Position numbers and translations under genes: made by a program. A stretch of DNA of 23,319 nucleotides from a virus (Duplodnaviria > Heunggongvirae > Uroviricota > Caudoviricetes): IMG/VR virus record IMGVR_UViG_3300009095_001812, positions 184,990 through 208,308 of that record; one strand, given 5' to 3'. Shown here in pieces: positions 2,335 to 23,197 of the stretch; the first letter of the stretch is position 1; every line of letters starts with the position of its first letter. A model generated the notes under the pieces. The model did not search any database, had not been told where the DNA came from, and saw nothing but the letters and a program-made list of their open reading frames with translations.

Positions 2335-2339
2335 TTTAA

Positions 2340-3326: not shown

Positions 3327-3347
3327 AAATCTGCTTGACCTTCCTTT

Positions 3348-3895: not shown

Positions 3896-3910
3896 AATTT
3901 TTCTTTAGAA

Positions 3911-4047: not shown

Positions 4048-4049
4048 AG

Positions 4050-4121: not shown

Positions 4122-4123
4122 AA

Positions 4124-4191
4124 AGTGACGAAAATAACGAAGACCTTTTGTCCAATTTACAGTAAGATGAATGATCTTCTTGCGCGTCACT
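4124..4191 (-). ncRNA. Y-RNA(YrlA)-like element, copy 4 (minimal scaffold, no tRNA module)
   Basis: AGTGACG/CGTCACT (compensatory change versus GTAACG/CGTTAC); GAAGATC/GGTCTTC; ~20-nt interior. Confidence 0.7.
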
Positions 4192-4197
4192 AAAACT

Positions 4198-4860: not shown

Positions 4861-4874
4861 AAATTTCCTATTAG

Positions 4875-4947
4875 CATTCCCGGCAGGACTCGAACCTGCA
4901 ATTGGCAACTTAGAAGGTTGCTGCTTATCCTATTAAGCTTCGGGAAC
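4875..4947 (-). tRNA. tRNA-Arg(TCT)
   Basis: Anticodon arm GCAAC-CTTCTAA-GTTGC. Confidence 0.9.
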
Positions 4948-4952
4948 ATTCA

Positions 4953-5132
4953 TTATAGATACTTTTCCCAGAATATATCTATTGCTTCTTTACGAATACC
5001 TTGCTTAGCAAGTAGGTGAACTTCATGGAGTTTCACAACTCCTTTTTCAACAAAATCAATTATCAAACCAGCCTGTTGCTGAGAATGTTTTTCTATTAAT
5101 TTCTTGTCAACCGGATCTGCCACGCTTTTCAT
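4953..5132 (-). CDS. Small hypothetical protein (59 aa)
   Basis: Manually translated MKSVADPVDKKLIEKHSQQQAGLIIDFVEKG..FWEKYL; fills an otherwise empty gap. Confidence 0.45.
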   Translation of the reverse strand: MKSVADPVDKKLIEKHSQQQAGLIIDFVEKGVVKLHEVHLLAKQGIRKEAIDIFWEKYL

Positions 5133-5412
5133 TTCCTCTTCTCCTCTTTGTCCTGTATCTCCTATTTGGATCTTGTTTAGAGAGCCATTTCATATATTTA
5201 CCAAACTCCTCATGTCCAAGAAGAGCTTCAACAGTATGATATGTAGATTCAAGTTCTTTGTTAGAAAAGAAAGCGTGAATAGAACGATGACAGTCAAGAC
5301 AAATGGGAAGTGTCTTTTTTCCGCCTCTTGATTTGGGAACTAGATGATGGTCGCTAACTTTTTGAACATCTCGACTACAAAGAGGGCAGTTGTGTATAAT
5401 TTCATTTCTCAT
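5107..5412 (-). CDS. Small HNH-family nuclease
   Basis: CPLC..DHHLVPKSRGG..PICLDCHRSIH motif. Confidence 0.75.
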   Translation of the reverse strand: MRNEIIHNCPLCSRDVQKVSDHHLVPKSRGGKKTLPICLDCHRSIHAFFSNKELESTYHTVEALLGHEEFGKYMKWLSKQDPNRRYRTKRRRGNEKRGRSG

Positions 5413-5719
5413 TTTCCCACATATCATTTGCTATCGCTGCTAGTGTATGTCCATGACATAATTTGGGAGAACACCAACAACCAAGAACTTTACCTTTCAA
5501 TTCTTTCTTTATATCCTCAATCATTTGAGGTTGTGAAAGAATCCATTCTCTATGTTTTTGAATTGATTCTTCTCTTGTCTGTACTTTGTATTGGGCAAGA
5601 GTTCCATCTTTTGAAGAGAAGGGATTTCCCCACTTAGACGGACGCCCTATGTAAACATCATATTTCTTTTTGGATCTATGAACTACATAAGGCCAAACTT
5701 CTTTGAAGAGAATTTTCAT
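5402..5719 (-). CDS. DUF4326-like protein (start MKILFK)
   Basis: YDVYIGRPSKWGNPF and LKGKVLGCWCSPKLCHGHTL motifs. Confidence 0.8.
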   Translation of the reverse strand: MKILFKEVWPYVVHRSKKKYDVYIGRPSKWGNPFSSKDGTLAQYKVQTREESIQKHREWILSQPQMIEDIKKELKGKVLGCWCSPKLCHGHTLAAIANDMWENEK

Positions 5720-5722
5720 TCG

Positions 5723-5806
5723 TGTCCAGAGAGGGAGTCGAACCCTCACGACCGTAACGGTCGGCAGCCCCTCAAGCTGCTGTGTCTGCCATTCCACCAC
5801 CTGGAC
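5723..5806 (-). tRNA. tRNA-Leu(GAG)
   Basis: Anticodon arm GCAGC-TTGAGGG-GCTGC; variable arm. Confidence 0.9.
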
Positions 5807-5807
5807 A

Positions 5808-6110
5808 TTATCTTTCGTATATACCAAATTTTACTAACTTGATATTACGTTTTGTTTCTGTATCTATATTCTTCAAAGAACCTTCATCAAGTTCATAAAG
5901 AATATTGACTTTTGTATATTTAACTAAAAGATCAGATGTCAATGTAACTATCAACAAAGCAGCTGAGGCTTGAAGAAACTTCACATTGAGTTCAGAAATT
6001 GAAACTAATCCTAAAAAGATTGTTCCAAAGAGCGCTAGTAAAAATATCATCTTGCTAAAAAAATGTTTAGCAAACATCCAATTTAGAATTATGCGCTCTT
6101 TAATCTTCAT
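5808..6110 (-). CDS. Hypothetical membrane protein (start MKIKER)
   Basis: Two hydrophobic segments; start moved out of tRNA-Gln. Confidence 0.6.
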   Translation of the reverse strand: MKIKERIILNWMFAKHFFSKMIFLLALFGTIFLGLVSISELNVKFLQASAALLIVTLTSDLLVKYTKVNILYELDEGSLKNIDTETKRNIKLVKFGIYER

Positions 6111-6111
6111 G

Positions 6112-6183
6112 TTGGGGTGGCAAGATTCGAACTTGCAACGAACCGGGTCAGAGCCGATCATTCTACCGTTGAATTACACCCCA
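6112..6183 (-). tRNA. tRNA-Gln(CTG)
   Basis: Anticodon arm ATCGG-CTCTGAC-CCGGT; acceptor TGGGGTG/CACCCCA. Confidence 0.9.
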
Positions 6184-7197
6184 ATTGGGTTCTGGATAGA
6201 GACTAACTACACAGTTTCTTCCTGAATCCTTTGCTACATACAGATTTTTATCTGCTCTCTCTACTAGAGAATCTATATCATCAATTTCATAAACTTCCGC
6301 AACGCCAATACTGACTGTTACTTCAAGCTTTCCGTCAATTTTGAGGGATGATATCTTGTTTTTAATTCTGTTGGCAACGGATGTTGCTGCGTCTAGTGTT
6401 GTTCCTGTCCAAACAATAAGGAACTCTTCACCGCCCCATCGACCAACAATATCTTCTTGTCTCAAATTTTCTACTATTGTTTGAACAACTGACTTAATTA
6501 CGCGATCACCCATTGCATGACCATAGTTATCATTGAAAAACTTGAAGTGGTCTATGTCAACTAAACCAACAGAAACGGGAGTTTCATTTCGATGAAACTT
6601 TGAAATCTCAGCCTTCAAAAGCTCCGTGATAACTCTTCTGTTGTAAACAGATGTAAGACCATCGTAAGTTGCATACTTCTCTAATTTGTCTAAAGCCTTC
6701 TTTAAATCATTTTCAGCTTTGACTCTGTCATCTATATCTCTGGTAATACAAATGATTTTTTCAACTCCATTACCATTTTTACGAGATGATGATCTTGTTT
6801 CAACCCACCTATAATTCCCTTTAAAATCACGGATTCTGTATTGAATTGGTTTAGACTCATCTAAAGCATGAGCTGCATGATCCTCTGCAATCATCTCTAA
6901 ATCATCTTGGTGAATCAAACAATAAGCTGATTTACCAACAAGGTATCCTGGTTCGTACCCAAGAATTCTTTTTACCGAAGGTGATGCAAAAAGATAATCT
7001 CCATTTGGAGAGTGAATAGAAATAAAGTCCGCAGAATAGTTTGCTATTAGCGATGATATTGAGTTATCAAAATCAATTCCTAAATTAGAAGAAATTGTCT
7101 GCGACCTTTGAAGACCAAGCTGATCCTCGACTTTGGCAACCTTTTGGTGAAGCAAAGCCAATTCCTTGTACAGCTTGGTCTTGTTTAGCAAACCCAC
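6163..7197 (-). CDS. PAS-domain diguanylate cyclase (GGDEF)
   Basis: PAS/PAC segment; YDGLT; DIDHFKFFNDNYGHAMGD; RQED I-site; RWGGEEF; AKDSGRNCV. Confidence 0.92.
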   Translation of the reverse strand: MGLLNKTKLYKELALLHQKVAKVEDQLGLQRSQTISSNLGIDFDNSISSLIANYSADFISIHSPNGDYLFASPSVKRILGYEPGYLVGKSAYCLIHQDDLEMIAEDHAAHALDESKPIQYRIRDFKGNYRWVETRSSSRKNGNGVEKIICITRDIDDRVKAENDLKKALDKLEKYATYDGLTSVYNRRVITELLKAEISKFHRNETPVSVGLVDIDHFKFFNDNYGHAMGDRVIKSVVQTIVENLRQEDIVGRWGGEEFLIVWTGTTLDAATSVANRIKNKISSLKIDGKLEVTVSIGVAEVYEIDDIDSLVERADKNLYVAKDSGRNCVVSLYPEPNWGVIQR

Positions 7198-7224
7198 TAC
7201 TGTATCTTAAATAATTACCATATG

Positions 7225-7296
7225 CAGGTCGCACAGGACTTGAACCCGTACCAATGGATTTGGAATCCACTATGCTACCAATTACACCAACGACCT
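7225..7296 (-). tRNA. tRNA-Trp(CCA)
   Basis: Anticodon arm GTGGA-TTCCAAA-TCCAT. Confidence 0.9.
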
Positions 7297-7540
7297 ATAG
7301 TAACTGTCTAAATCCTTCTAATGATAAAGTTTTTTCTTGAGATTCTTTGTACGTGTCGCATACACCATTTTTATGAATGCTTAGATACAATTCTTTTTTG
7401 TGTTTAAGATGAAAGTAAGTTTTTATTGTACACTCACCATAATCATTTCCGTTTTTGAATACAGAATATTCACAAAAATAACAGGACTTTTGTACTCTAT
7501 ATCCATTCTCATTAAGAACTTTGAGTTTGTTTATGTCCAT
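7295..7540 (-). CDS. Hypothetical Cys-containing protein
   Basis: 81 aa with CYFC and further Cys/His. Confidence 0.55.
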   Translation of the reverse strand: MDINKLKVLNENGYRVQKSCYFCEYSVFKNGNDYGECTIKTYFHLKHKKELYLSIHKNGVCDTYKESQEKTLSLEGFRQLL

Positions 7541-7551
7541 TTTTTAATTCC

Positions 7552-7667
7552 AGTAACGAAAAAACAAAGAGACTGTTTGTTCAACCCAGGATTTGAACCT
7601 GGAATATTCTGATTGCTCAGATGCGTTTACCATTTCGCGAGATGAAATCTCTTTTGGGCGCGTTACT
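7552..7667 (-). ncRNA. Y-RNA(YrlA)-like element, copy 5 (non-permuted D/anticodon-like/T module)
   Basis: AGTAACG/CGTTACT; AAAGAGA/TCTCTTT; interior GCG-AAATGGTAAA-CGC, TCTGA-GCAA-TCAGA, CCAGG-TTCAAAT-CCTGG. Confidence 0.7.
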
Positions 7668-7670
7668 TTG

Positions 7671-7743
7671 TGAACCCTCTCGGAATCGAACCGAGGATCT
7701 TCAGATTAAGAGTCTGATGCTGTTCCTATCTAGCTTAGGGTCC
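7671..7743 (-). tRNA. tRNA-Lys(CTT)
   Basis: Anticodon arm TCAGA-CTCTTAA-TCTGA. Confidence 0.9.
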
Positions 7744-7748
7744 TAATA

Positions 7749-7871
7749 AACAAACGAAAAAGTGCAGACAAATGGGCCGCCAGTATTACCGACGTTTTCC
7801 TTAGCCCCGGATGGAATCGAACCATCTCGCGCCCAATTTATGATAGATGAAATGTCTACGGCGCGTTTGTT
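7749..7871 (-). ncRNA. Y-RNA(YrlA)-like element, copy 6
   Basis: AACAAACG/CGTTTGTT (covarying); GTAGACA/TGTCTGC; interior TGGGC/GCCCA stem enclosing T-arm GATGG-TTCGATT-CCATC then a D-like hairpin. Confidence 0.7.
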
Positions 7872-7949
7872 GAACTTGTCCGCAACAGAGTAGCCTAACG
7901 GTGGTTTGCTATAATCGAACTTACTTCGATACTTCGTGCTCTATTGAAG

Positions 7950-8000
7950 TGGCGGAAGGTGAGGGAATTGAACCCCCAAGGCTATTACGCTCGGCACTTT
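7950..8000 (-). pseudogene. 3' half remnant of a Ser-type tRNA
   Basis: AAA-GTGCC-long variable arm-GGGGG-TTCAATT-CCCTC-ACCTTCC-G-CCA, starting at the HNH stop codon. Confidence 0.75.
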
Positions 8001-8605
8001 TATAAACCATAAAATCTAGCCCATTTTCTGACAGCGTTGTCAGAAACTCCAAACATCCTTCCGATAGATACCCAAGTTTTAGTATCTATTAATTTTGATA
8101 ACTCATCTTTACTGGGTCTTTCAACTTTTCTCAAATGAGTTCTTCCTATTCTTTTTTGAGATTCTTTATTAGGGAATCTACACTTTTTGTTACAAAAATG
8201 TTTAGCATATTTTTTCAATCTTGACGGCTGAACTCTTTTTTCCTTACCGCAAGTTGAACAAGATACGTATACAGGTTCTATAACATCTATAAATTGCCTA
8301 AGATATTTTTCTTTTTCTATAGACTCTTTTATATGCATCTCTTCATGAACCTCTCTATGACAATTGGAACAAAGTAATTGACATTTATCTAGTTCATTTT
8401 TTATAAATTTCCATTTCTTATTAGATATATGAGATACAGATTTATCTTTTTCATTTGGATCTTTGTGATGAAAATCCATAGCTGCATAACTTTTGTTGTA
8501 TCCACACCTTTCGCACTTTCCACCTTTATATTCTACAGCTTGTTTTTTAATTCGCCGCCGTCTTTCAGAAAGTTTCCAGTTTTGATATTGTTGTCTTTTG
8601 TTCAT
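8000..8605 (-). CDS. HNH homing endonuclease with C-terminal zinc motif and HTH
   Basis: CERCGY..DFHHKDP..KCQLLCSNCHREVH; VSIGRMFGVSDNAVRKWA; paralog of 10461..11219. Confidence 0.85.
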   Translation of the reverse strand: MNKRQQYQNWKLSERRRRIKKQAVEYKGGKCERCGYNKSYAAMDFHHKDPNEKDKSVSHISNKKWKFIKNELDKCQLLCSNCHREVHEEMHIKESIEKEKYLRQFIDVIEPVYVSCSTCGKEKRVQPSRLKKYAKHFCNKKCRFPNKESQKRIGRTHLRKVERPSKDELSKLIDTKTWVSIGRMFGVSDNAVRKWARFYGL

Positions 8606-8638
8606 GCTTGTATGTTCAATTATGCATACAAACTGGTG

Positions 8639-8722
8639 CGGAAAGCACTGGAGTCGAACCAGACACCTTTCGGTGCATTCTGATTAGCAGTCAGATGAGC
8701 AACCACTTACTCTTTACCTTCC
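8639..8722 (-). tRNA. tRNA-Ser(GCT)
   Basis: Anticodon arm TCTGA-CTGCTAA-TCAGA; variable arm; G73. Confidence 0.85.
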
Positions 8723-8727
8723 ATTTT

Positions 8728-8803
8728 GGTGACCGACGGGAATCGAACCCGCAAGAAACAACTGAGCCACAATCAGTCCGCTAACCAATTTGCGTTCGGT
8801 CAC
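8728..8803 (-). tRNA. tRNA-His(GTG)
   Basis: Anticodon arm ACTGA-TTGTGGC-TCAGT; C73; G-1 not encoded. Confidence 0.85.
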
Positions 8804-8805
8804 AG

Positions 8806-8842
8806 TGCAGGATGAGGGAATCGAACCCCCGACCTATTCCTT
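8806..8842 (-). pseudogene. 3' half of a split tRNA (partner of 9663..9688)
   Basis: AA-GGAAT-AGGTC-GGGGG-TTCGATT-CCCTC-ATCCTGC-A. Confidence 0.75.
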
Positions 8843-8898
8843 CTAATAATCCCACCGATCTTTAATCGAACCAATGACCTCTACTAATATCTTGGTAG

Positions 8899-9591
8899 AT
8901 GTATATGGGTATCTATTGGAACGATAAAGATTTTATTGAAGCTATAAAGAACAACAACACAATTAGTGATGTCCTGCGCGTTTTTGACATTCCTTCAAAC
9001 CAAGGATATTACAACAAGATGTTTCACGAAGATGTTGCAAGGTTGAATGTATCAACTATGCATTTTGTGAAGAGCAAACAGCCAGCAAATACTTGGCCAT
9101 TAGATCAAATACTTGTAGAAAATTCTTTTTATAAAGGAGGTTCTTATTATTTAAAGCTTCGACTTTTCAAAGAAAAATTACTTAAGAAAGAGTGTGCTGA
9201 GTGTGGTCAAGGACCAAAATGGAATGATAAAAAATTATCACTCCATCTCGATCATGTCAACGGAAATCCCAAAGATAACAGGATTGAAAATCTGAGGATT
9301 CTTTGTCCCAACTGTCACTCTCAGACAGAAACTTATTGTGGATCAAAAAAGAGAAAAGAAAAACATACTTACAAGTTTGTTTGTAAGTCTTGCGGCGGAC
9401 CAAAGAAGACATCACAGTCTACTTTGTGCAACAATTGCAGTGCAAAAACCAAAGCAAAATCAAAAATTGATTGGCCTAATAGTGATATCTTATCATCTAT
9501 GATACAAGACTTTGGTTATGAATATACTGGTAAAAAACTTGGCGTGTCTGGTAATGCTGTAAAAAAACATTACCAGAAATTTAGTGGATGA
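8899..9591 (+). CDS. HNH homing endonuclease with C-terminal zinc motif and HTH
   Basis: CAECGQGPKWNDKKLSLHLDHVNGNPKDNRIENLRILCPNCHSQT; CKSC..CNNC; KLGVSGNAVKK. Confidence 0.88.
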   Translation: MYMGIYWNDKDFIEAIKNNNTISDVLRVFDIPSNQGYYNKMFHEDVARLNVSTMHFVKSKQPANTWPLDQILVENSFYKGGSYYLKLRLFKEKLLKKECAECGQGPKWNDKKLSLHLDHVNGNPKDNRIENLRILCPNCHSQTETYCGSKKRKEKHTYKFVCKSCGGPKKTSQSTLCNNCSAKTKAKSKIDWPNSDILSSMIQDFGYEYTGKKLGVSGNAVKKHYQKFSG

Positions 9592-9659
9592 TACTGGACT
9601 CGAACCAGTGAAACCTCTGACTTGTAAAAACAGTGCTCTACCAACTGAGCTAATCATCC
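9585..9659 (-). tRNA. tRNA-Val(TAC)
   Basis: Acceptor GGATGAT/ATCATCC; loop TTTACAA; anticodon stem has one mismatch. Confidence 0.8.
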
Positions 9660-9662
9660 GCT

Positions 9663-9688
9663 GAATTACTCTACTGAGCTAATCCTGC
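9663..9688 (-). pseudogene. 5' half of a split tRNA (partner of 8806..8842)
   Basis: GCAGGAT-TA-GCTCAG-TAGAG-TA-ATTC; GCAGGAT perfectly complements ATCCTGC of the 3' remnant; D loop partly deleted. Confidence 0.7.
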
Positions 9689-9692
9689 ATAA

Positions 9693-9829
9693 GTAACGAA
9701 AAGGTGAAAGACCATTTTGTATCATAGTGCTTCCGTTACACCATACAGGCCGCTAAGCCTGCAACGGGATTCGAACCCGTACCTTTTGTTTCGTAGACAG
9801 TTAGATGAACGATCTCTCTAGCGCGTTGT
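9693..9829 (-). ncRNA. Y-RNA(YrlA)-like element, copy 7 (permuted module with CTACGAA loop)
   Basis: AACG/CGTT; GAGAGATC/GGTCTTTC; T-arm ACGGG-TTCGAAT-CCCGT; acceptor hairpin TGCAGGC/GCCTGTA; D-arm GTGTAACGGAAGCAC. Confidence 0.75.
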
Positions 9830-9832
9830 TTG

Positions 9833-9911
9833 TGTCCATAGAGGGACTCGAACCCCCACGCCGAAGCAATACGTTCTAAGCGTATCGTGTCTGCCATTCC
9901 ACCATATGGAC
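9833..9911 (-). tRNA. tRNA-Leu(TAG)
   Basis: Anticodon arm ATACG-CTTAGAA-CGTAT. Confidence 0.9.
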
Positions 9912-9937
9912 ATAGATATTCAATGTAGTTGTATTTG

Positions 9938-10012
9938 TCAGGGAGATAGGATTCGAACCTACAACCTTCTCACTCCAGATGAGACCGTCTACCAAGTTGA
10001 CATTACACCCTG
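9938..10012 (-). tRNA. tRNA-Pro(TGG)
   Basis: Anticodon arm TCTCA-TCTGGAG-TGAGA (C33); C1 acceptor CAGGGTG. Confidence 0.8.
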
Positions 10013-10077
10013 ATGTAGTTTTATATTATAAGTAGATTGCTAAATGCATAATTAGGCATAGAATTTGAGGTGCCATT

Positions 10078-10407
10078 ATGTTAAGTGACAACACTGGATT
10101 TACTCTAAGTATAGGAAAGCTAACTGCAATCATTATATCTGTTGTAGGTATGAGCTTTACTATAGGTATGTCTTATCAGTCTTTGATGCCTGATCGTGAG
10201 CTTCAAAAGAAGCAGACAGAAAAAATTGAAAAGATAGAAATCACAATGGAAAGAGTAACTACTGTACTTGAAAAACTAGAGGAGAAAACCTCTCAGCATT
10301 CTCAGGCTATCAATGACGTTCAAACTAAAATCAATACAGTAAACACTGAGGTTCAAGTAATTGGATCTTATGTAAAACAGAACGAAGAGAGAAAAGGAAG
10401 AAGATAA
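10078..10407 (+). CDS. Hypothetical single-TM coiled-coil protein (holin-like possible)
   Basis: N-terminal TM helix followed by heptad repeats; GAGGT SD upstream. Confidence 0.6.
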   Translation: MLSDNTGFTLSIGKLTAIIISVVGMSFTIGMSYQSLMPDRELQKKQTEKIEKIEITMERVTTVLEKLEEKTSQHSQAINDVQTKINTVNTEVQVIGSYVKQNEERKGRR

Positions 10408-10417
10408 CTTTCCAGAG

Positions 10418-10462
10418 TGCAGCGCGAGGGATTCGAACCCCCTCAGCCCGAAGGCGACAGTT
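10418..10462 (-). pseudogene. 3' half remnant of a type II (probably Tyr) tRNA
   Basis: AA-CTGTC-GCCTTCGGGCT-GA-GGGGG-TTCGAAT-CCCTC-GCGCTGC-A; the AA is shared with the HNH TAA stop. Confidence 0.7.
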
Positions 10463-11219
10463 AAATCTTTCGTAGCCAATATCCCTGTGGTGGTAATTCT
10501 ATATTATTATTTTTACACCTTTTTTTTATCGCCGTATCGGATACTCCTAGAGTTTTAGAAAGTTTTGATAATGGGTATTTCCAAACTAAATCTCCAAGGT
10601 TAGGTGGCCATTCTATTTTACAAATATAATTTGTAAAGATTGTTTTAGATTTTGGTTTATCAACGCCAAGTTCATTACAAATTCTTTTTAATGTAGAAAC
10701 AGAAACTTTAAGATTAGATGCTGCATCTGATAGATTCATTGAATTTAACAATTCAGATAAATATTTTTTTGAAGGTCTTGGTATTTTTGTAGTTTTTGAA
10801 TTACACGATCTACATTTTTGTGATTTACAATCAAACCTTACAGAAAATGGTTTTTTACAAGATTTACAAATTCTATTTTCTTTTATTTCATTTTGTAAAT
10901 CCTTCAAAAGGATTTTTTCAGAAGCTTGTTTTTTAGCACGTTGTCTTTCATGCTCTTCTATATGACAATTTGAACACAATAAAATACACTTATCCAATTC
11001 TGATTTTATTTTATCCCAAGACATCGTCGATTTTGAAATCGTAAAATCTTTTTTGGATGGATCTAAATGATGAAATTGCAAAGCTGTTATCGATTTATCA
11101 TAATCACAGTTTTCACATTTTCTACCTTTATAAATAACAGATTTTATTTTCAAATTTCTTCTAAAATCATTTATACGTACACGTTTTACTACCTTTTTGT
11201 ATTCGTCAATTTTGTTCAT
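10461..11219 (-). CDS. HNH homing endonuclease with zinc and HTH domains
   Basis: CENCDY..LQFHHLDP..KCILLCSNCHIEEH; two C-terminal HTH-like repeats. Confidence 0.85.
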   Translation of the reverse strand: MNKIDEYKKVVKRVRINDFRRNLKIKSVIYKGRKCENCDYDKSITALQFHHLDPSKKDFTISKSTMSWDKIKSELDKCILLCSNCHIEEHERQRAKKQASEKILLKDLQNEIKENRICKSCKKPFSVRFDCKSQKCRSCNSKTTKIPRPSKKYLSELLNSMNLSDAASNLKVSVSTLKRICNELGVDKPKSKTIFTNYICKIEWPPNLGDLVWKYPLSKLSKTLGVSDTAIKKRCKNNNIELPPQGYWLRKI

Positions 11220-11249
11220 ATATAGATACTACATTATTAGTAGTTCTAG

Positions 11250-11335
11250 TGAGGTGTGAGGGATTCGAACCCACTAGACTCACAAGAGTGTCTGATTTAC
11301 AGTCAGATCCGGCCCTCCAACTCCGGCGCTACCTC
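11250..11335 (-). tRNA. tRNA-Tyr(GTA) (imperfect acceptor and T stems)
   Basis: Anticodon arm TCTGA-CTGTAAA-TCAGA; variable arm; 2 acceptor mismatches. Confidence 0.75.
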
Positions 11336-11406
11336 AGGTGAACTCAGAACCCAACCTGCCTGTCTAGACCTAAATCCAAACAGAGCGGGTCAAGAGTTCA
11401 ATATCG

Positions 11407-11504
11407 TGGTGGGAGTAAGATTTGCACTTACGCAGGCTACTTGGATCTCAAGCATTACCAGGAGTTTTATAGACTCTTGCCCTCTCAAACAGGCGAGCCC
11501 CACC
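11407..11504 (-). tRNA. Tyr-like tRNA with ATA anticodon and very long variable arm
   Basis: Acceptor GGTGGGG/TCCCACC; AGAGT-CTATAAA-ACTCC; ~27-nt variable arm; T-arm GTAAG-TGCAAAT-CTTAC. Confidence 0.6.
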
Positions 11505-11605
11505 AAAATGAAGTATTCAGTTGTCAATGATCGAGGAGGGTTTCCCTCATCTATCTGAACAATCGATAACTTTTGTATCAATTGCGAACTTTAGCTTGTC
11601 GCTAG

Positions 11606-11677
11606 TTGGGGAACTGGGATTCGAACCCAGGTAGACAGCTTCAAAGGCTGCAGTCCTAGCCGCTGGACGATTCCCCA
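11606..11677 (-). tRNA. tRNA-Gln(TTG)
   Basis: Anticodon arm GCAGC-CTTTGAA-GCTGT; acceptor TGGGGAA/TTCCCCA. Confidence 0.9.
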
Positions 11678-14378: not shown

Positions 14379-14945
14379 CTAAACTGGCTCAGGTTGTGCT
14401 GCTACGTCATCGGAACCAACCAACCGATCTTTGAGCATCATTTCTAAATTAGAGATAGTGTCTTCAATTTGTTGCGTGAACTTGGTCCAGAACAACCAAC
14501 GATCCTCAAATTTTTGTTGTTGCTCTTGGGGAACTTCAGACTTAGCTAGTTGTAGTTCATTGAAAAAATTTTCATTTAGATATGATCTCTTGTAGTTATC
14601 CCAAGAGTTTCTGACTTTTTGTAAGTCAGGAATAGATACATTCATATCTTTTTGATTTGTTAAGTTAAAATAGTACTGGCGTACATCGTTCTGTAAATTT
14701 CTAACTCCAGATTTTGATTCAGGACGAGTTATAGGGAAGCGTTCTTGTTCTTCCATCTTATCAACTTCTTGGACAAGAGTTGCAATCAACGCCTGGTCGA
14801 TCTGTGGGGTTGGATTGGCTACTCCATTAGGATCAGCAAGTTTATTAGACAATCCCAAGATTGTTTCCCAGGCCTGTAAATTAGCCGAGTTTTGAGCTAA
14901 TTTGTAGTACCAAGAAGCATATTTGAGGATCTTAGAAATATCCAT
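14379..14945 (-). CDS. Hypothetical protein
   Basis: 188 aa, helical; N-terminus MDISKILKYASWYYKLAQ. Confidence 0.7.
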   Translation of the reverse strand: MDISKILKYASWYYKLAQNSANLQAWETILGLSNKLADPNGVANPTPQIDQALIATLVQEVDKMEEQERFPITRPESKSGVRNLQNDVRQYYFNLTNQKDMNVSIPDLQKVRNSWDNYKRSYLNENFFNELQLAKSEVPQEQQQKFEDRWLFWTKFTQQIEDTISNLEMMLKDRLVGSDDVAAQPEPV

Positions 14946-14970: not shown

Positions 14971-14989
14971 GTCTCATCGTAATGAGCAA
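14971..14989 (-). CRISPR. Solitary truncated CRISPR repeat (hairpin handle only)
   Basis: 19/19 identity to the array repeat end TTGCTCATTACGATGAGAC. Confidence 0.65.
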
Positions 14990-14998: not shown

Positions 14999-15283
14999 AT
15001 GAAAATCAAGTCACATATTGTTTTGGGCTCTTTAGAAGCCATGGCTGACAAAACCGGAAAAGGCTCTTTATTTAGGGCTTGCATAGCATTTCAACGATCT
15101 TGTTCATCTGAAGAAATAGGAGATAAGATTGTAGGGCTTGGATACAGCTACATCTTAGGAAAAGATGTAATTCAACAAATTGATTCCATCTGTTCTGAAA
15201 ACGAATCATCAACAGGAGAGTTTAGAGAAGCTGTAAGAGCCCTACGCAATGCAATAGAAATGGCTAGTACCCGCCAGACTTAA
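14999..15283 (+). CDS. Hypothetical protein (94 aa; start MKIKSH)
   Basis: ORF between two solitary repeats, followed by a terminator. Confidence 0.55.
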   Translation: MKIKSHIVLGSLEAMADKTGKGSLFRACIAFQRSCSSEEIGDKIVGLGYSYILGKDVIQQIDSICSENESSTGEFREAVRALRNAIEMASTRQT

Positions 15284-15311
15284 ACCAACCCTGTCCTTTG
15301 AGTTGAAAACC

Positions 15312-15350
15312 GATACCGCCCGAGATGAGCCTCTGGGCGGTATCTTTTTT
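15312..15350 (+). terminator. Rho-independent terminator
   Basis: GATACCGCCC/GGGCGGTATC 10-bp stem followed by T6. Confidence 0.8.
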
Positions 15351-15450: not shown

Positions 15451-15487
15451 GTCCCATCGTAATGAGCAATATTTAGGTGTGTTCAAC
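15451..15487 (-). CRISPR. Solitary near-full-length CRISPR repeat (37 nt)
   Basis: GTCCCATCGTAATGAGCAATATTTAGGTGTGTTCAAC: one substitution and one insertion versus the array repeat. Confidence 0.75.
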
Positions 15488-15732: not shown

Positions 15733-18234
15733 TTACATTTTCGTAGCTGCGAGATTCGCAAGTTCAGATCTTTCACCCTTGGAAAGGGTGAGATGTCCTA
15801 CCAACGGATGATCTTGGAGCTTCTCGACCGCAACGCTGAGTCCACAGTTGTTCTTATCCATATATGGATTATCAATCTGATCTGGATCTCCTGTAAGAAC
15901 AATCTTTGTCCCTTCGCCACAACGAGTAATAATAGTTTTTATTTCATGAGGACTTAAATTCTGAGCCTCATCAATAATAATAAACTGATTTGGTAAGCTT
16001 CTGCCTCTAATATACGTAAGTGGTTCTACACGAATAAGATCTTGCTGGAAAAGATCATCATACACAAGACCTGTTTTCTTTTTAGAACCACTAATCATCA
16101 TAAGAAGTTCTAAATTATCATATATAGGTTGCATCCAAGGATTCATTTTCTCTTCAATGGTTCCTGGCAAAAACCCAATATCTTTACCCATAGGAACAAC
16201 GGGGCGAGAAATTAAAAGACGAGAATACTTTCCATCTAAAACAACTCTTTGAAGACCAGCAGCTACAGCGAGGAGCGTATTATGTGTTACGATACAATCA
16301 TTTGTAATATATAAATGATCAGGGTGATCAATTAAAATACATTGACAGTTTTCAAATCCACAACTTTCAACACTTACTATATATCTTCTTGGTATATATT
16401 TAGTTCTATTTTTAACTAACGATGACTTTCTTTCAAGTCTAAATGGATTTATATTGTTAGGCAAAGATAATCGTAAACGATAAGATAAAAGCCCAGTTCT
16501 TTTTTCTTTGTTATAACTATATTTAGTTTTTCGTGTTGAAATGGACACTGTTCCACCAAGACTTTGAACTATCCATTTAAAATCTTGGGCTAAAAATGGG
16601 GATGTAGTTGTGAATTCAAAATCCTTACCAGTTCTAGAATCTACAGAACCATCAGTATCCATTAAACCTTGTAAAAGAGCAATCCTATCTTTTATAGAAG
16701 AATATTTATAATCATCAGGTATAAATTTTTCATGTGAAAACTTATTAATCAATCCGACTGATGTTAGATATGTAATAAAATTAGAAGAACTTACACGATC
16801 ACCGAAACTCCAATTAATATTTTTGTACAATGTTTTATTTTTTATAGATCTGTAAATTGAATCTCTATTATATCCATCTTTAGTACAATCTTGTATTCCT
16901 GTATATATTTTTTGTATAATTCCATTAATTGTTGACTTAATAGAGTGCCCATTTACAACTCTTTCAACACCAATTAAATCATAATCATATTTAGAGTGTT
17001 GAAGTAACTGTAATTGTGGTTTTATAGATTTATCAACTGCATTTTTCAATTCAAGATCTGATGTGCTAAAACCAAGATGATGTCGAAACGTTCCATCACC
17101 AATTAAAAGCCCAAAAACATAAGGGTCTATAATTAATTTTTGAGAAGCCATTTCAATGGGGTTTGTGATGGGGATACTATGATTTTTCTTTCCTCGGTAT
17201 AAAAGAGTTTTTCTTATTTCCTGAGTAGATCTTATTTGACCTTTGTTTTTTCTATCACGCTCGATAGATGTTTGAGTTTGCCAAAGATGCTCACCACAAG
17301 CAGTAGTAGAAGATCCATCACTAAAAGTAACACGAAAAACCTCTTTTGACCCTTGAGGAAAAACCCCTAAAATACAAGAAGATCCTCCAGAGGGTGTGCT
17401 AACAAGATCCCCAACATTAAGATCTCCCATTTTTACATAACCAGTAGGAGTTAAAACATCAGCAGTTAGTGGTTGGGCCTTACCAGTTCCTGCCATTCCA
17501 ACAAGAGTCATAAGCTTTACATCATCATCAAGTAACATATCAAGAGCAAACTGTTGCTCTCTATTCCTTGGTCTAATTCCCATTATTCCTTCTTTAGGAA
17601 CGTGTAAAGGAACCATTTTATTTTTTGATTTTAAAAATCGGCACAAAGCAGATTTGGATTCCGACTTGAGCATTACACAAGTATTATCAGCAAGTTCAGA
17701 ACTTTCAACTTCAAATTCTTTGGTAATAAATAATTCATTGATATCAGTATCTGAAGCTTGAATCTCTTTGTATCCAGATCTCATTCTATTTGTGTCTACA
17801 GAATTAGATTCATATGATGCTGTTTGTAAACCCAAGCTATCAGCGCGGATTCTTAAGTTGACATCCATCGTTACCAAAATGGTATTGAGTTCACTTTTAG
17901 TTTTGATATCTAGTGCCGATTGGAGTATCGCATTGTCCATGTTGTTTAGATCTATTGCGACTTTTGGTATCATCTTTTCGGTAGGAACATAGACGATAAA
18001 CTTTCCTCCATCATTGATGTCCACACCTTCTGCAAGGTGTCCGGAACATCTAAGGCCATCTATGAGTCTGCACGCTTCTCTCGAATTTCTTCCGCGTAGA
18101 GATTGCTCGTTTTTTAACTTATCAAGTTCTTCTAGAACGTATATTGGAATATATAAATTGTTGTCCTCGAAACTGAAAATGGATTGGGGGTCGTAAATTA
18201 AGATGTTTGTATCAAGAATATAGTTTTTTCTCAT
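15733..18234 (-). CDS. phoH: PIN-PhoH family ATPase precursor containing an intein (433 aa after splicing)
   Basis: N-terminal PIN (YILDTNILI); GMAGTGK|T P-loop; GFLPGTIEEKMNPW; YIRGRSL; IIDEAQNL; TGDPDQID. Confidence 0.92.
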   Translation of the reverse strand: MRKNYILDTNILIYDPQSIFSFEDNNLYIPIYVLEELDKLKNEQSLRGRNSREACRLIDGLRCSGHLAEGVDINDGGKFIVYVPTEKMIPKVAIDLNNMDNAILQSALDIKTKSELNTILVTMDVNLRIRADSLGLQTASYESNSVDTNRMRSGYKEIQASDTDINELFITKEFEVESSELADNTCVMLKSESKSALCRFLKSKNKMVPLHVPKEGIMGIRPRNREQQFALDMLLDDDVKLMTLVGMAGTGKAQPLTADVLTPTGYVKMGDLNVGDLVSTPSGGSSCILGVFPQGSKEVFRVTFSDGSSTTACGEHLWQTQTSIERDRKNKGQIRSTQEIRKTLLYRGKKNHSIPITNPIEMASQKLIIDPYVFGLLIGDGTFRHHLGFSTSDLELKNAVDKSIKPQLQLLQHSKYDYDLIGVERVVNGHSIKSTINGIIQKIYTGIQDCTKDGYNRDSIYRSIKNKTLYKNINWSFGDRVSSSNFITYLTSVGLINKFSHEKFIPDDYKYSSIKDRIALLQGLMDTDGSVDSRTGKDFEFTTTSPFLAQDFKWIVQSLGGTVSISTRKTKYSYNKEKRTGLLSYRLRLSLPNNINPFRLERKSSLVKNRTKYIPRRYIVSVESCGFENCQCILIDHPDHLYITNDCIVTHNTLLAVAAGLQRVVLDGKYSRLLISRPVVPMGKDIGFLPGTIEEKMNPWMQPIYDNLELLMMISGSKKKTGLVYDDLFQQDLIRVEPLTYIRGRSLPNQFIIIDEAQNLSPHEIKTIITRCGEGTKIVLTGDPDQIDNPYMDKNNCGLSVAVEKLQDHPLVGHLTLSKGERSELANLAATKM
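16279..17478 (-). mobile_element. Intein with LAGLIDADG homing endonuclease (400 aa)
   Basis: Starts AQPLTADVLTP in the Walker A, ends IVTHN before T; PYVFGLLIGDG and LLQGLMDTDG motifs. Confidence 0.9.
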
Positions 18235-18279
18235 ACTTCTTTATATATTTAAATATCCATAGGATCAGAGGAAGTATGA

Positions 18280-18439
18280 GTCTCATCGTAATGAGCAATA
18301 TTTGGTGTATTCAACACCCGATCCCGCCGCGCGCGCTGTAGCCTCCGATAGTCTCATCGTAATGAGCAATATTTGGTGTGTTCAACTCTATCAGATCTGT
18401 CTCTACTGCATTAGCTTCTTGGTCTCATCGTAATGAGCA
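18280..18439 (-). CRISPR. CRISPR mini-array: two 36-nt repeats, one 18-nt partial repeat, two 35-nt spacers; CasPhi(Cas12j)-like repeat
   Basis: Repeats 18280-18315, 18351-18386, 18422-18439; minus-strand consensus GTTGAACACACCAAATATTGCTCATTACGATGAGAC; orientation inferred from repeat homology. Confidence 0.85.
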
Positions 18440-18490
18440 GTTTCATCAAAAGTTGCGATTTTTCCAACCCTCGACCTGCTTATAATTTCG

Positions 18491-18498
18491 TATAAATA
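18491..18498 (+). promoter_or_regulatory. TATAAATA box (T4-late-promoter-like) immediately before ATG 18501
   Basis: Exact T4 late consensus, but short and expected by chance in AT-rich DNA. Confidence 0.25.
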
Positions 18499-18500
18499 AT

Positions 18501-18980
18501 ATGGATGTAAAGAAACTGACAAAACTAGCGGAATTATATTTCCTACATACAAAAGCACAGGTTGGCACTCCAAATATTACAATTCAGCCCGGAAGGCCTG
18601 AAACTAATTGTGCTGTAGATATTTTGAAACTATATAATCCATCTATGTTTATAAATGTTAAAGAGATTATTGTAGGTCCATCAGCTAATTACGGACATGT
18701 TGAATCGGGACCTGATAAAGATCCTTCAGTTATCTATGTGAACGCAGATAGAATTGTCTCTGAATCTGGAGGTCAACAAAGTGGAAAGGCCGCAGCTATT
18801 GCTACGGCCCAGGTTATTGCGCACGAGAAGGCGCACGTTGAGTCCTACGATCCCGCACAGGGTTTTATCGGCGGAGAGGCTCCAGCTGAGGCGGAAGAGC
18901 AGGCTTTTGAACAGTGGCTCCATTCTGGAGGAATGCTCCAGGTTGAGAAGCTTCCTTCTTATCAACAACTAAGTGGTTGA
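18501..18980 (+). CDS. Hypothetical protein with HExxH zincin-like motif
   Basis: QVIAHEKAHVE followed by a downstream Glu-rich helix. Confidence 0.6.
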   Translation: MDVKKLTKLAELYFLHTKAQVGTPNITIQPGRPETNCAVDILKLYNPSMFINVKEIIVGPSANYGHVESGPDKDPSVIYVNADRIVSESGGQQSGKAAAIATAQVIAHEKAHVESYDPAQGFIGGEAPAEAEEQAFEQWLHSGGMLQVEKLPSYQQLSG

Positions 18981-19550: not shown

Positions 19551-20474
19551 TTATTCATCCTTTAGAAATTGCATTGCTATATCAGCGCCAGGAATATCAG
19601 ATAGTAAAAATATAGTGCTAACAAATATTAAAATCAAACCAACAAAAACGGTTGATATCTGAATTTTAGAAGATAGATCTAACTCCCAAAACTCTTTGCC
19701 TTTATCAGGTTTAGGTTTATTCCAAATATCTAAACAATAATCTTTCATGTAAATAAACATTGGTACAATACGATCAAACTGAAATCTAAATGAGAACCAA
19801 AGGGCTGCTACCAAACAGACACAAAGGGCCATTATTACAAATACAAAAAAGCTAACTGGTTTAATCTCCAACATCCCAATTATCGCTATAAACAGCAACA
19901 ATCCTAATTCGAGAGTTATAGATAGGTAGATAGCAAGAGCAAATCCAAATAAAAGAAATCCCAAACCTAAACGAGAATCAAAAGAGAATACAAGAGCCTT
20001 AACAACCCTTCCGCCATCTAGAGGATTTACGGGAAAGAGGTTGAAAAGGTTCACTGCACTTAACCAGCTTGCAGCTGCTGCCCACATCGCATTTTTTGTA
20101 ATGTAATACAAAATCAAAGGAGGGATTATAGTTAGAAGTCCAAAGATCGGACCCCAAAGAGCAACCCAAGCTTCTTCTCTTCCAGATCTAAATTCTTCCT
20201 CAGAAATAGCTGCACCACCAACAAGTGGAATGAAATAGAATCCTTTGGTCTTCAATCCATGCCAGCGCATAGCTGAAACATGACCCATCTCATGTATACC
20301 AATTCCAAACATGACAAGGAGCGCAAACTTCCATGTAAATATGAATGTATACGCTCCAAAAGTTCCAGCAGCCAAAATAAACTTGAGGGACTTAGCAAGT
20401 TTTAACAATGTTGTACTTACTTTTCCAAGTATAGCAAACATATTTATGTAGTTTGACTGAGCTGATGTTGTCAT
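19551..20474 (-). CDS. Site-2 protease (peptidase M50)
   Basis: IHEMGH, NLFNLFPVNPLDGGRV, multiple TM helices. Confidence 0.9.
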   Translation of the reverse strand: MTTSAQSNYINMFAILGKVSTTLLKLAKSLKFILAAGTFGAYTFIFTWKFALLVMFGIGIHEMGHVSAMRWHGLKTKGFYFIPLVGGAAISEEEFRSGREEAWVALWGPIFGLLTIIPPLILYYITKNAMWAAAASWLSAVNLFNLFPVNPLDGGRVVKALVFSFDSRLGLGFLLFGFALAIYLSITLELGLLLFIAIIGMLEIKPVSFFVFVIMALCVCLVAALWFSFRFQFDRIVPMFIYMKDYCLDIWNKPKPDKGKEFWELDLSSKIQISTVFVGLILIFVSTIFLLSDIPGADIAMQFLKDE

Positions 20475-21100
20475 GCTAGCTTAATTTCAGCTTTGATTGT
20501 TACTTCGAAATTGGGAATACGAATATGATTTGCCATTTTATGCTCAATAGCAGCTTGAGCAGTTAAGTACCAATCCGCATGAGATCTGTCATGTACAAGC
20601 TTTTGAAAATATCCTTCTGGGTGTCCACAATTATTATCCATGAGTTTATAAATCAAATTATTAAGACGTTCAGCTTCTGCTGAATCAGCCTTAATTTCTT
20701 CATTCTTTCCACGAGCCAAGGAAGAAACATCATGAATCATAACTGTAGAATACGGTGATATAAATCGGTAACCATCCATTCCACAAGATAAAAGAACAGC
20801 TCCACAGCTCATACTTTTACCTAGGCAAAGTGTTGCAATTTTTTTCTTGGATGATTTGATCAGATCTACCATTGGTAATAGTGAGTAAAGATACCCGCCA
20901 TAAGAATCAATTACAATTAATATAGTGTCTTGATCTGAATTCTCTGCATCGGTGAAATCAGAGTAAAACTTCTTTGCAGAATCTTCATCAAAATCATTTA
21001 CAAGAATAATTTTTGGTAAATCGATAAGCTCATCAACTTTACCAATGATGGTAGGATCTTTTTTAATTCGTGTAAAAATCAGATTGTTTTTGTCAGTCAT
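20471..21100 (-). CDS. clpP: ClpP-like serine protease
   Basis: IDSYGG, GKSMSCGA (Ser), VMIHD (His), DWYLTAQAA (Asp). Confidence 0.85.
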   Translation of the reverse strand: MTDKNNLIFTRIKKDPTIIGKVDELIDLPKIILVNDFDEDSAKKFYSDFTDAENSDQDTILIVIDSYGGYLYSLLPMVDLIKSSKKKIATLCLGKSMSCGAVLLSCGMDGYRFISPYSTVMIHDVSSLARGKNEEIKADSAEAERLNNLIYKLMDNNCGHPEGYFQKLVHDRSHADWYLTAQAAIEHKMANHIRIPNFEVTIKAEIKLA

Positions 21101-21563
21101 CTTTATCCGGAAGTAACTCTTTGAGAGTTTGAAGACGTTTCAATTGTTTTGGCGCTGTGCTTTTGTGCATGGGCCATGTAACAATTATCGTCTCACTTCC
21201 GGGCTCGACTTCTGTTAAACCAGCATCTCGGACAACGAAAACATCAAGAATTTCTTTAATCTTTTCAAAGTCTTTTGTCTTGGCTTTTAGAAAAACTTTT
21301 CTAAATGATTCGTTCATCCATTTGTTCGTAATATCCCTTTTCAACATTGGTTTTCCACCAGATGGCATGGGTTTACACAAATCGCATACTTTTAAATACC
21401 CAAAAATAAACATTTGAGCACCATGAGCTATTTGGGCTCCAATTTTACCAACACTCATTCCAATATCAGAACGTACAATGTAATATTGAACAATCGGATC
21501 TGATTGATCTTCCCTGATCTGGGCTAATTTTTCATCATCAAATGGATTTAGTTCTACCGGCAT
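21093..21563 (-). CDS. pth2: Peptidyl-tRNA hydrolase type 2
   Basis: VRSDIGMSVGKIGAQIAHGA; RKVFLK; DAGLTEVEPGSET. Confidence 0.88.
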   Translation of the reverse strand: MPVELNPFDDEKLAQIREDQSDPIVQYYIVRSDIGMSVGKIGAQIAHGAQMFIFGYLKVCDLCKPMPSGGKPMLKRDITNKWMNESFRKVFLKAKTKDFEKIKEILDVFVVRDAGLTEVEPGSETIIVTWPMHKSTAPKQLKRLQTLKELLPDKDD

Positions 21564-21873
21564 ATAAACTCTTTATATAAGTTTCATCAATTCCAGTTGC
21601 TATAAATTCTAAATCTGTACAAATATTTTCAACTGGGGTCTTTAGACTAAAAATATCTCTAAAGAATTTATTAGTTAATGAAGCATATTTCCAATTTACT
21701 TTATTTTTGAATTCTCTAATAAAGTCTTCAGAAAGTATTTGACAATATGAAATATAATTCCAATCAATTTTATCTTGGAATTCTCTAATAAAGTCTTCAG
21801 AAAGTTTTTGATAACGTGAAATCACACCCCAGTGTACATTGTCAGGGTTATTTTTTATTTCCTCAATATTCAT
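21538..21873 (-). CDS. Trp-repeat protein (23-aa LSEDFIREFxDK+DW repeats; start MNIEEI)
   Basis: 28-nt direct repeat at 21709 and 21778 (69-nt period). Confidence 0.65.
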   Translation of the reverse strand: MNIEEIKNNPDNVHWGVISRYQKLSEDFIREFQDKIDWNYISYCQILSEDFIREFKNKVNWKYASLTNKFFRDIFSLKTPVENICTDLEFIATGIDETYIKSLYAGRTKSI

Positions 21874-21874
21874 T

Positions 21875-22333
21875 TCAGTCGCTCCATAATTCTTTAGAAA
21901 GAGCTTCTTTCCAAAAATCAACAGATTTGTGTTCTGGAAGCTTCATAAGAATCATGTTTGCTTGATGAAAACTTTGAGCAAAAGAATCAAGATTAAACAA
22001 ACGTAGGCACTTAATAACTCTAGATATTCTTAACCAATTATGGTTTGGAATAGAATAAATCCAAGATCTATTTTCTAATAAAAAATCATAAAAGAATAAA
22101 AACGAATTTATAATTTTTTGCTGACCATTATTGTCAATAATGATATTGATATCATCTTTGGTAAGAATAGGAGCTAATTCGTTATAGTTAGATGTTTCAT
22201 TTAACGGAAACATCCACTGAATAAAATCATGGGTTGTTTCTAGATTTTCGTAACTAAACCGGAGATAATCATTCAACGTCCGGTTTTTGTTATCTATCCC
22301 GTCATGAAGGTAGAACTCAGTTATCGCTGACAT
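21875..22333 (-). CDS. Opioid growth factor receptor (OGFr) N-domain-like protein
   Basis: LETTHDFIQWMFPL..APILT and HNWLRISRVIKCL motifs. Confidence 0.8.
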   Translation of the reverse strand: MSAITEFYLHDGIDNKNRTLNDYLRFSYENLETTHDFIQWMFPLNETSNYNELAPILTKDDINIIIDNNGQQKIINSFLFFYDFLLENRSWIYSIPNHNWLRISRVIKCLRLFNLDSFAQSFHQANMILMKLPEHKSVDFWKEALSKELWSD

Positions 22334-22530
22334 TAGAATAGGTTTCCCTGAGAATCAATCATACCCTCGTACCCACACCAGTTGCACTTGGCGTGAATAG
22401 AGTACCCATCCATCCTAAGATGGGTTCTACTCCCATGCCACCCAATGTAACAAAAAAATCTTTTGACAGGATTTTTGGTGGGAATTACCGAATGATCAAG
22501 TTGTACACTCTTTATATTATTTGAGTTCAT
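22333..22530 (-). CDS. Hypothetical protein
   Basis: 65 aa; CYIGWH..CNWCG. Confidence 0.55.
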   Translation of the reverse strand: MNSNNIKSVQLDHSVIPTKNPVKRFFCYIGWHGSRTHLRMDGYSIHAKCNWCGYEGMIDSQGNLF

Positions 22531-23197
22531 ATTTCAACTTTCTTGCTAATCTAGAAATACCAACCTCTGTCTTACAATCACAAATATCAATAGCGTCTTC
22601 AAAAGACATCAAAGTACACTCCCCATACTTTTCTAATGGAGAACCATCTTCAGACGGAATTCCTCTTTTCATTCCGGTTACATCAACACAGAACCACCAA
22701 AGCAATTCTGGCATTGTTCCAACAGATCCCCATAGTGGTTTTCCAAGCACATCAACTTTAGGAACTTCAAAACCAGTTTCTTCTAACAACTCTCTTACAC
22801 CAGCTTGTGAAGGGGTTTCTCCTTCATCAATCAGTCCTGCTGGAAGTTCCCATGTAGAAGCGTCTTCACAAACGGGAAGCTCAAATCTAAGAGCTAGATT
22901 AGGTCGAACACAACTTCGTAACCAAATCCTTGGACTCTCTTCCGAAAGATCATAAGCGCACACTACAGCAGCATCACGCCTGGTTCTATCGATTACATCG
23001 TAGACAAGTGGTTCACATTCTTCTCCATTAGGATACTGAAGCTTCATCTTCATATGACGAAGAGTAAGAAATGATTTCTCGGGAGATTCAATATCACCGA
23101 GGTGTACGAGTTTGATTTCGGGAGGGTTCTTTACCATATCAAAAATATCAGTGCTAATGCTAAAATTTGAAGAAAACATTGAAGCAATATCATACAT
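22517..23197 (-). CDS. Nudix hydrolase (ADP-ribose pyrophosphatase-like)
   Basis: Nudix box WELPAGLIDEGETPSQAGVRELLEETGF. Confidence 0.88.
   Translation of the reverse strand: MYDIASMFSSNFSISTDIFDMVKNPPEIKLVHLGDIESPEKSFLTLRHMKMKLQYPNGEECEPLVYDVIDRTRRDAAVVCAYDLSEESPRIWLRSCVRPNLALRFELPVCEDASTWELPAGLIDEGETPSQAGVRELLEETGFEVPKVDVLGKPLWGSVGTMPELLWWFCVDVTGMKRGIPSEDGSPLEKYGECTLMSFEDAIDICDCKTEVGISRLARKLKYELK

Follow-up and report, generated by a model that had tools for sequence, protein, structure and literature searches.

A type V-J-style orphan CRISPR mini-array in the phoH leader of a huge soil phage

The locus described here raises the question of which nuclease a CRISPR mini-array can serve when it is carried by phage DNA in which no cas gene is found. 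To our knowledge, Cas12j (CasPhi) is known from huge phages only, and this nuclease is thought to serve phage-versus-phage warfare. The array lies in the last 23.3 kb of a linear, 208,308-bp IMG/VR virus record (37% GC) that was recovered from a soil metagenome; these 23.3 kb are referred to as the window. CheckV puts the completeness of the record at 49%, so that the full genome would measure ~425 kb. An earlier note, made from the letters of the window, had described an orphan array with CasPhi-type repeats and had proposed either a Cas12j-family system with distributed arrays or the use of an effector borrowed from a host or a co-infecting element.

Architecture, repeat family and orientation of the array

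The array occupies positions 18280-18439. On the minus strand it opens with a handle-only unit of 18 nt, after which 35-nt spacers alternate with 36-nt repeats, two of each. The leader-proximal first unit (18422-18439) retains an intact hairpin that folds into a 5-bp stem with a tetraloop, its ATTGC motif is degraded to ACTGC, and agreement with the repeat over the next 18 bases is limited to 4 positions. The array therefore consists of two full repeats and one truncated unit; the 36-nt repeats and 35-nt spacers claimed in the earlier note are both present, with the correction that the third unit is just 18 nt long. Downstream of this unit, spacer A (18387-18421; 40% GC against a window average of 37%) is followed by the full repeat R2 (18351-18386), which has one mismatch to R1, by spacer B (18316-18350; 71% GC), and by the full terminal repeat R1 (18280-18315), after which the phoH 5′ UTR follows. 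The GC contents that had been noted for the two spacers agree with these values. On the minus strand the repeat ends as it had been described, in ATTG-CTCAT-TACG-ATGAG-AC, and RNA folding returned the 5-bp stem and the tetraloop. The period of the array is exactly 71 nt, twice. Within the 208 kb, copies of the repeat were found three times in register in the array and twice at a distance of ~3 kb, and none were found elsewhere. With three in-register copies and two further copies, the array is far beyond chance. The assembly of the source run (Logan contigs) breaks within R1, and the 37-nt repeat unitig has a depth of 49.9 compared to 19.8 for the flank, contig depths being too crude for counting extra repeat copies.

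Published Cas12j repeats share a conserved ATTGC in mid-repeat, a 3′ GAC, and a 5-nt stem with a tetraloop (PMC9917002). On the minus strand, R1 and R2 bear all of the published Cas12j features, namely an internal ATTGC, a 5-bp stem, a tetraloop, a 3′ GAC and a length of ~36 nt. Reference arrays were obtained by scanning IMG/VR for triplets of ATTGC-N12-GAC units spaced as in an array. Six of the 16 matches were true arrays, and five of these six adjoined a Cas12j gene, one of which matched CasPhi-2 (7lys) with E=6e-210; a seventh reference array was recovered through a Cas12j protein search. When the window repeats were aligned with the repeats of five cas12j-flanked arrays, ATTGC and GAC were invariant and all five stem pairs were paired (50 of 50 cells), with compensatory changes on both sides at four of the five pairs. 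The covariation score was matched by none of 500 shuffles, and slid controls paired in 20-54%. The periods of the reference arrays were 71-76 nt compared to 71 nt here, and the 35-nt spacers agree with the ~35-40 nt expected of such arrays. An Rfam search of the array returned neither CRISPR-DR nor any other family, even at E <= 10. The repeat is therefore assigned to type V-J on the basis of the invariant ATTGC and GAC, a stem that covaries beyond the controls, and no competing Rfam family. The CasPhi-type assignment in the earlier note thus fits both the published signature and the empirical set of cas12j-flanked repeats, with which the window repeat aligns while keeping all of its stem pairs. 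In summary, the mini-array is a genuine orphan array of type V-J style; it is classed by its repeat type, and not as a complete system, because no cas12j is present in the 208,308 bases of the 49%-complete record.

Our data indicate that the functional strand of the array is the minus strand. The repeat motif and the 3′ hairpin read correctly on this strand only, and the stem change in a further copy at 15451 leaves a G-U wobble in minus-strand RNA where the plus strand would have a C-A mismatch. In addition, the array and the units at 15451 and 14971 each precede a minus-strand gene, ending 45, 7 and 25 nt before the ATG of PIN-PhoH, of a Zn-ribbon protein (Zn_ribbon_8, 8e-13) and of ORF 14379-14945, respectively.

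The phoH gene is located directly downstream of the array, so that the array was rightly said to read into the 5′ region of phoH. This gene (15733-18234, minus strand) encodes an 833-aa PIN-PhoH ATPase with a LAGLIDADG intein (Pfam PIN_4 7.6e-30, PhoH 2e-46, LAGLIDADG_3 1.1e-6) and is presumably co-transcribed with the array; the PhoH proteins of relatives are intein-less, with 432-435 aa. The top DNA match to the window, LR756500.1, was set aside, as it is without the array repeat and its PhoH is just 50% identical. The leader and candidate promoter region (18440-18511, minus strand) is common to the array and to the divergent ORF159, and the array and phoH are preceded by no other non-coding DNA. 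Because phoH has no other upstream non-coding DNA, the array would be transcribed whenever phoH is. A promoter-like site (TTTACA-18-AATTAT) at 18511->18482 on the minus strand is considered weak, since sites of this kind are no more frequent than in shuffles, and a leader hairpin is predicted at 18475-18445.

Beyond the terminal repeat, the phoH 5′ UTR takes the place of a "pseudo-spacer" (18230-18280, minus strand). A 10-bp helix is predicted between 18271-18280, which comprises the final base of the terminal repeat and the nine UTR bases that follow, and 18230-18239, where the ribosome-binding region and AUG of phoH lie. The minus-strand fold of 18215-18315 has an energy of -16.9 kcal/mol (z = -2.4), which was equaled or bettered in 4 of 200 shuffles, and the same helix recurs in a 261-nt fold. 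It is absent from the 58-bp phoH upstream region of G013, the one relative inspected.

Insertion site, solitary units and related handles

A search with the tail-sheath protein identified 22 related contigs with 45-81% identity. Since identity to the sheaths of the classical Cas12j phages is just 26-27%, the phage belongs to a different clade; of the earlier statement that CasPhi is found in huge phages of the Biggiephage clade, the huge phage applies here and the classical Biggiephage does not. The record is collinear with the relative G013 (392 kb, 91% complete) from ~341.5 kb down to ~165 kb of the latter. ORF159 (18501-18980, plus strand), the divergent neighbor of the array, served as a synteny anchor, with homologs of 63-66% identity in G001, G013 and G024. 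In these three relatives the gap between phoH and the ORF159 homolog is 57-58 bp long and array-free, from which it follows that the array was inserted recently, and in this lineage specifically, into the divergent promoter region.

Several other features of the phage were observed. A bank of 15 tRNA genes with interspersed HNH endonuclease genes lies at 840-11677 (minus strand), and a phage-encoded PAS-GGDEF diguanylate cyclase lies at 6163-7197 (minus strand), with ClpP, M50 peptidase, PTH2 and NUDIX genes near it at 19551-23197. A longer assembly of the right end of the contig was sought with the NUDIX protein, which returned one 1.7-kb Logan contig and nothing more. Further inteins and homing endonucleases are scattered over the genome, in a papain-like gene, a UvsW-like helicase and HNH genes (8899-9591 and 10461-11219).

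The two further copies of the repeat are solitary units. The unit at 15451-15487 (minus strand) is full-length, with 37 nt owing to a 1-nt insertion. Its stem change creates a GGGA 9-12 nt before the Zn-ribbon ATG, so the ribosome site of this gene likely lies within the hairpin arm. The unit is unchanged in a sediment relative from another study, in which its flanks vary. The second unit (14971-14988, minus strand) is handle-only. Inside the minus-strand Zn-ribbon ORF, a strong terminator-like hairpin with a T-run was observed on the plus strand (15311-15350), and this appears to serve the convergent 94-aa ORF 14999-15283.

The exact handle had no match in IMG/VR. Neither there nor among 241 million metagenome records was it seen to form an array, and the only occurrences were lone units. 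These exact 20-nt handles are lone intergenic units in several unrelated metagenome contigs and often lie 0-45 nt before an ATG; in L108 and L109 the unit is antisense to its neighbors. Some of the metagenome matches are probably chance or oriT hairpins, since ~3-4 chance matches are expected per 20-mer on a rough estimate. One of them (L100) lies inside a 658-aa ORF, and L106/L107 (3,064-bp contigs) form a ~2.9-kb circle with a terminal overlap and a Mob_Pre-like gene, in which the handle, 40 nt upstream, is probably an oriT-type hairpin or chance. A looser handle pattern gave 60 single matches, all of which were attributed to chance; the match with a good stem (L041) falls inside an ORF. A search of INPHARED returned nothing real for the repeat, and no match for a CasPhi-2 repeat.

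Satellite mini-arrays and lone handles, distant from the nuclease gene, were also observed in genomes that encode Cas12j. G005 (323 kb) has a seven-repeat main array, a one-spacer mini-array 23 kb off and five lone handles, and G006 likewise has extra units; G003 and G004 have the main array only. In G006, four to five handle units at 46-59-nt spacing lie directly upstream of cas12j (L097:2900-3160). The lone handles of G005 (L092, L093, L095) can be grouped into classes, each with a conserved 5′ part that differs from that of the array repeat, and a 16-nt lead, GTGTAGTCA..CACTC with two variable positions, occurs three times in this genome.

Among the relatives of the window phage, three bear handles with lineage-specific stems that are still complementary: CCTAG/CTAGG in G001 (20 nt before an ATG), CTCAC/GTGAG in two units of G020 (24 nt before an ATG), and CTCTT/AAGAG in G012. 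The handle-bearing relatives are all incomplete (15-75%), and the 91%-complete G013 has neither cas12j nor handles. On the minus strand of G020 (213583-294160), a 20-nt gene-start-like motif, GTACAAGATGAGTGACGACT, was observed at least 10 times, mostly preceded by TTGCTG.

Effector, targets and possible roles

The earlier statement that the window holds no cas gene was borne out, and it extends to the whole 208-kb contig. The search of the contig with three Cas12j proteins (tblastn) gave a best E of 0.39, and a profile HMM of four Cas12j proteins gave a best E of 1.3 against all contig ORFs of >=100 aa. PF07282 (TnpB/Cas12 zinc-ribbon family) was unmatched in the contig, and its large unannotated ORFs returned nothing Cas-like from Pfam, PHROGs and PADLOC; sheath, polymerase, helicase and intein genes were seen. 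The RuvC/TnpB-like protein for which the earlier note had proposed a search was thus not found in this 49%-complete contig. The handle's relatives are all phage-borne. The 20-nt handle had no match in 185,579 species-representative prokaryote genomes, so a host system with this repeat is unsupported, and the same applies to the proposal of a borrowed host effector.

Full-length cas12j was found in none of 18 sheath-defined relatives. A 475-aa TnpB/Cas12f-like gene was observed in G013 (L139:436-1863, which is G013 160663-162090) and also in G024 and G023, with a PF07282 match of 2e-13; its best PDB match is the zinc-ribbon region of CasPhi-3, and it stands in an operon-like gene row ~8 kb past the G013 point that corresponds to the right end of the contig. 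It was rejected as the effector, as repeats are absent beside it and G013 is without handles.

A cas12j was found in G026, a contig of 28.6 kb (31% GC) that starts inside the 3′ end of this gene and continues with a five-unit array. G026 is collinear with G013 (344-368 kb) and with G020 (188-216 kb) at 30-70% amino-acid identity, and it therefore belongs to the same clade as the window phage. The island that contains this cas12j is hypervariable and is bounded by a conserved 335-aa gene on one side and by a homolog of ORF 1468-2547 on the other. This island is 6-21 kb long in six relatives, and cas12j was found there in none of the six. The left end of the contig stops within the island, 1.4 kb from the conserved flank. 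The first unit of the G026 array has a degenerate 5′ part, as in the window array, and the G026 spacers have 46-65% GC in a phage of 31% GC; GC-rich spacers in an AT-rich phage are thus common to both arrays. None of 26 Cas12j homologs from a set of 5.8 billion proteins was close to the G026 fragment, and the four Logan Cas12j loci that were checked have other handles. The conserved 335-aa gene is split into 2-3 pieces by ~1-kb insertions in G010 (77761-79922), G012 (33903-36380) and G023 (75175-78883), which could be introns, homing elements or pseudogenization.

The spacers gave no indication of a target. A protospacer was not found for either spacer in the phage's own 208 kb and all loci fetched, and exact 20-mers of both spacers had no match in IMG/VR. 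All blastn matches in INPHARED had E >= 4 and are attributed to chance, and a 20-mer of spacer B had no match in the GTDB representative genomes. There was likewise no match in G001-G005 and 17 relatives with <=3 mismatches over 26 nt, or in the full G013 and G020 with <=10 mismatches over 35 nt. These searches, which took in 19 relatives, were limited, and targets may have escaped them. The host and phage-like origins that had been proposed for the two spacers are guesses, because no protospacer was found.

On balance, and tentatively, the mini-array is best read as a satellite array of the phage's own Cas12j, whose gene would lie in the unassembled half of the genome. The cas12j island of G026, the break of the contig inside the corresponding island, the precedent of G005 and G006, and the intact spacers in register all favor this reading. 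It is weakened by the handles that G012 and G020 bear without cas12j, by G013, which has neither, by the lack of a normal array with this handle and of spacer targets, and also by the ACTGC of the first unit and the absence of cas12j from 208 kb.

Inserted in the divergent phoH/ORF159 promoter region, the array would be transcribed from the minus strand as part of the 5′ leader of the phoH mRNA. A Cas12j would then recognize every 3′ hairpin, cleave the RNA on its upstream side, and retain the handle and spacer as a guide. Cutting within the repeats would result in two guide RNAs, each consisting of a 3′ hairpin handle and a 35-nt spacer, and the handle-only first unit would need no 5′ repeat part; the terminal repeat would give a third product, a chimera of the handle and the phoH UTR. 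The effector, a Cas12j encoded in the missing half of the phage, would cut matching DNA and may be used against competing mobile elements. Speculatively, the binding of the effector could also affect phoH translation, since the predicted 10-bp helix covers the ribosome site and the AUG.

Guide piracy, which is the best supported of the alternatives and still rather unlikely, supposes that the phage has no Cas12j of its own and that its array and lone handles supply guides to a Cas12j encoded by a co-infecting huge phage or by a host prophage. The nuclease would thereby be redirected against the rival or a third element, in the manner of archaeal virus mini-arrays, which employ the Cas proteins of their host. 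The clade is mostly without cas12j, yet the window phage, G001, G012 and G020 bear handles with lineage-specific stems, and the island is fully assembled without cas12j in both G012 and G020; every handle-bearing relative is incomplete, however, and the satellites of G005 and G006 occur in genomes that do encode cas12j. The recurrence of the exact handle as lone units in unrelated metagenome contigs, never as a normal array, is consistent with piracy. Against it, no Cas12j array bearing this handle is known from which a matching effector could come. Sample 3300043411 is the source of both a relative of the window phage and the cas12j-bearing G026, and viral mini-arrays with an effector in trans are an established kind (PMC11656645); the lack of a spacer target counts against the redirection of a nuclease. 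In a related and slightly more doubtful proposal, a cas12j-poor clade of huge phages plants CasPhi handles and a mini-array in its own gene leaders in order to exploit or blunt the CasPhi of its rivals, and the phoH helix would be opened by the effector, so that the gene is on only when CasPhi is present.

It is improbable that the array is a decaying relic, that is, a fragment of a Cas12j array that was captured by recombination and is now non-CRISPR, acting at most as an RNA structure in the phoH leader. The near identity of R1 and R2 (1 of 36 nt differs), the exact register, and the hairpin that is intact in five copies, in one of them through a wobble-preserving change, speak against decay, and the sediment relative retains the 15451 unit unchanged amid variable flanks. 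What does fit a relic is the lineage-specific occurrence of the array, which is missing at the site in G001, G013 and G024, along with the truncated unit with its mutated ATTGC, the orphan spacers, and the abundance of homing endonucleases and inteins as signs of frequent recombination. The least likely reading is an RNA decoy, a Racr-like anti-CRISPR whose handle transcripts would titrate the Cas12j of rival huge phages that target this phage and in which the spacers are incidental: lone crRNA-handle mimics do inhibit Cas complexes, with candidates for almost all CRISPR types (PMC10651486), and two solitary units accompany the array with no cis effector present, but two full-length 35-nt spacers in exact register are superfluous for a decoy, the satellites of G005 and G006 would be self-harm beside their own cas12j, and a dedicated strong promoter or terminator was not seen around the units.

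An array of this repeat type in a second phage clade, distant from any effector, extends the range of the Cas12j system, with the nuclease gene as an accessory element of a hypervariable island and with satellite arrays and lone handles beside it. The locus is a concrete place to test whether the CRISPR nuclease of one phage can be exploited or disarmed by another, and its phoH-leader arrangement offers a simple reporter for the binding of the effector to a message.

Comparison with known systems

Descriptions already exist of orphan arrays from huge phages, of viral mini-arrays and of Cas12j arrays (PMC7162821, PMC11656645, PMC12607003). The more unusual feature is the presence of lone Cas12j handles in message leaders, which was not found in the literature searched.

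The array most closely resembles the CasPhi/Cas12j arrays of huge phages (Al-Shayeb 2020, PMC7162821; PMC9917002; 7lys, 7odf, 8iew) in its 36-nt repeat with ATTGC, stem, tetraloop and GAC, and also in its ~35-37-nt spacers, its compactness, the absence of adaptation genes and its huge-phage carrier. It differs from them in that no cas12j is found within 200 kb, only two spacers are present, the site is the 5′ leader of a PIN-PhoH gene, and the phage belongs to a distant clade.

The virus-borne mini-arrays of SPV1 and SPV2 (PMC11656645, PMC7099407) are similar in having one or two spacers, no adjoining cas gene and an effector that is presumed to act in trans. In contrast to the window array, for which the searches gave neither result, the repeats of SPV1 and SPV2 copy the host CRISPR and their spacers match related viruses. 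The repeat of the window array belongs to a phage-borne effector family, whereas the SPV1/SPV2 repeats are of the host type.

The solitary Racr units (PMC10651486; "V-J" and "Cas12j" do not occur in the main text of that paper) are comparable to the lone handle-mimics at 14971 and 15451, which likewise lie in viral intergenic DNA. Unlike Racr, the window array bears two in-register spacers, the promoter scan around it was not above shuffles, and the window units are not independent small-RNA genes but parts of the 5′ UTRs of protein-coding genes. Finally, the orphan arrays of jumbo phages and megaphages (PMC12607003; PMC7162821) are similar in being distant from cas genes, with an effector proposed elsewhere in the phage or host; the difference here is that the repeat can be assigned to an effector family and that a syntenic slot for the effector can be named.
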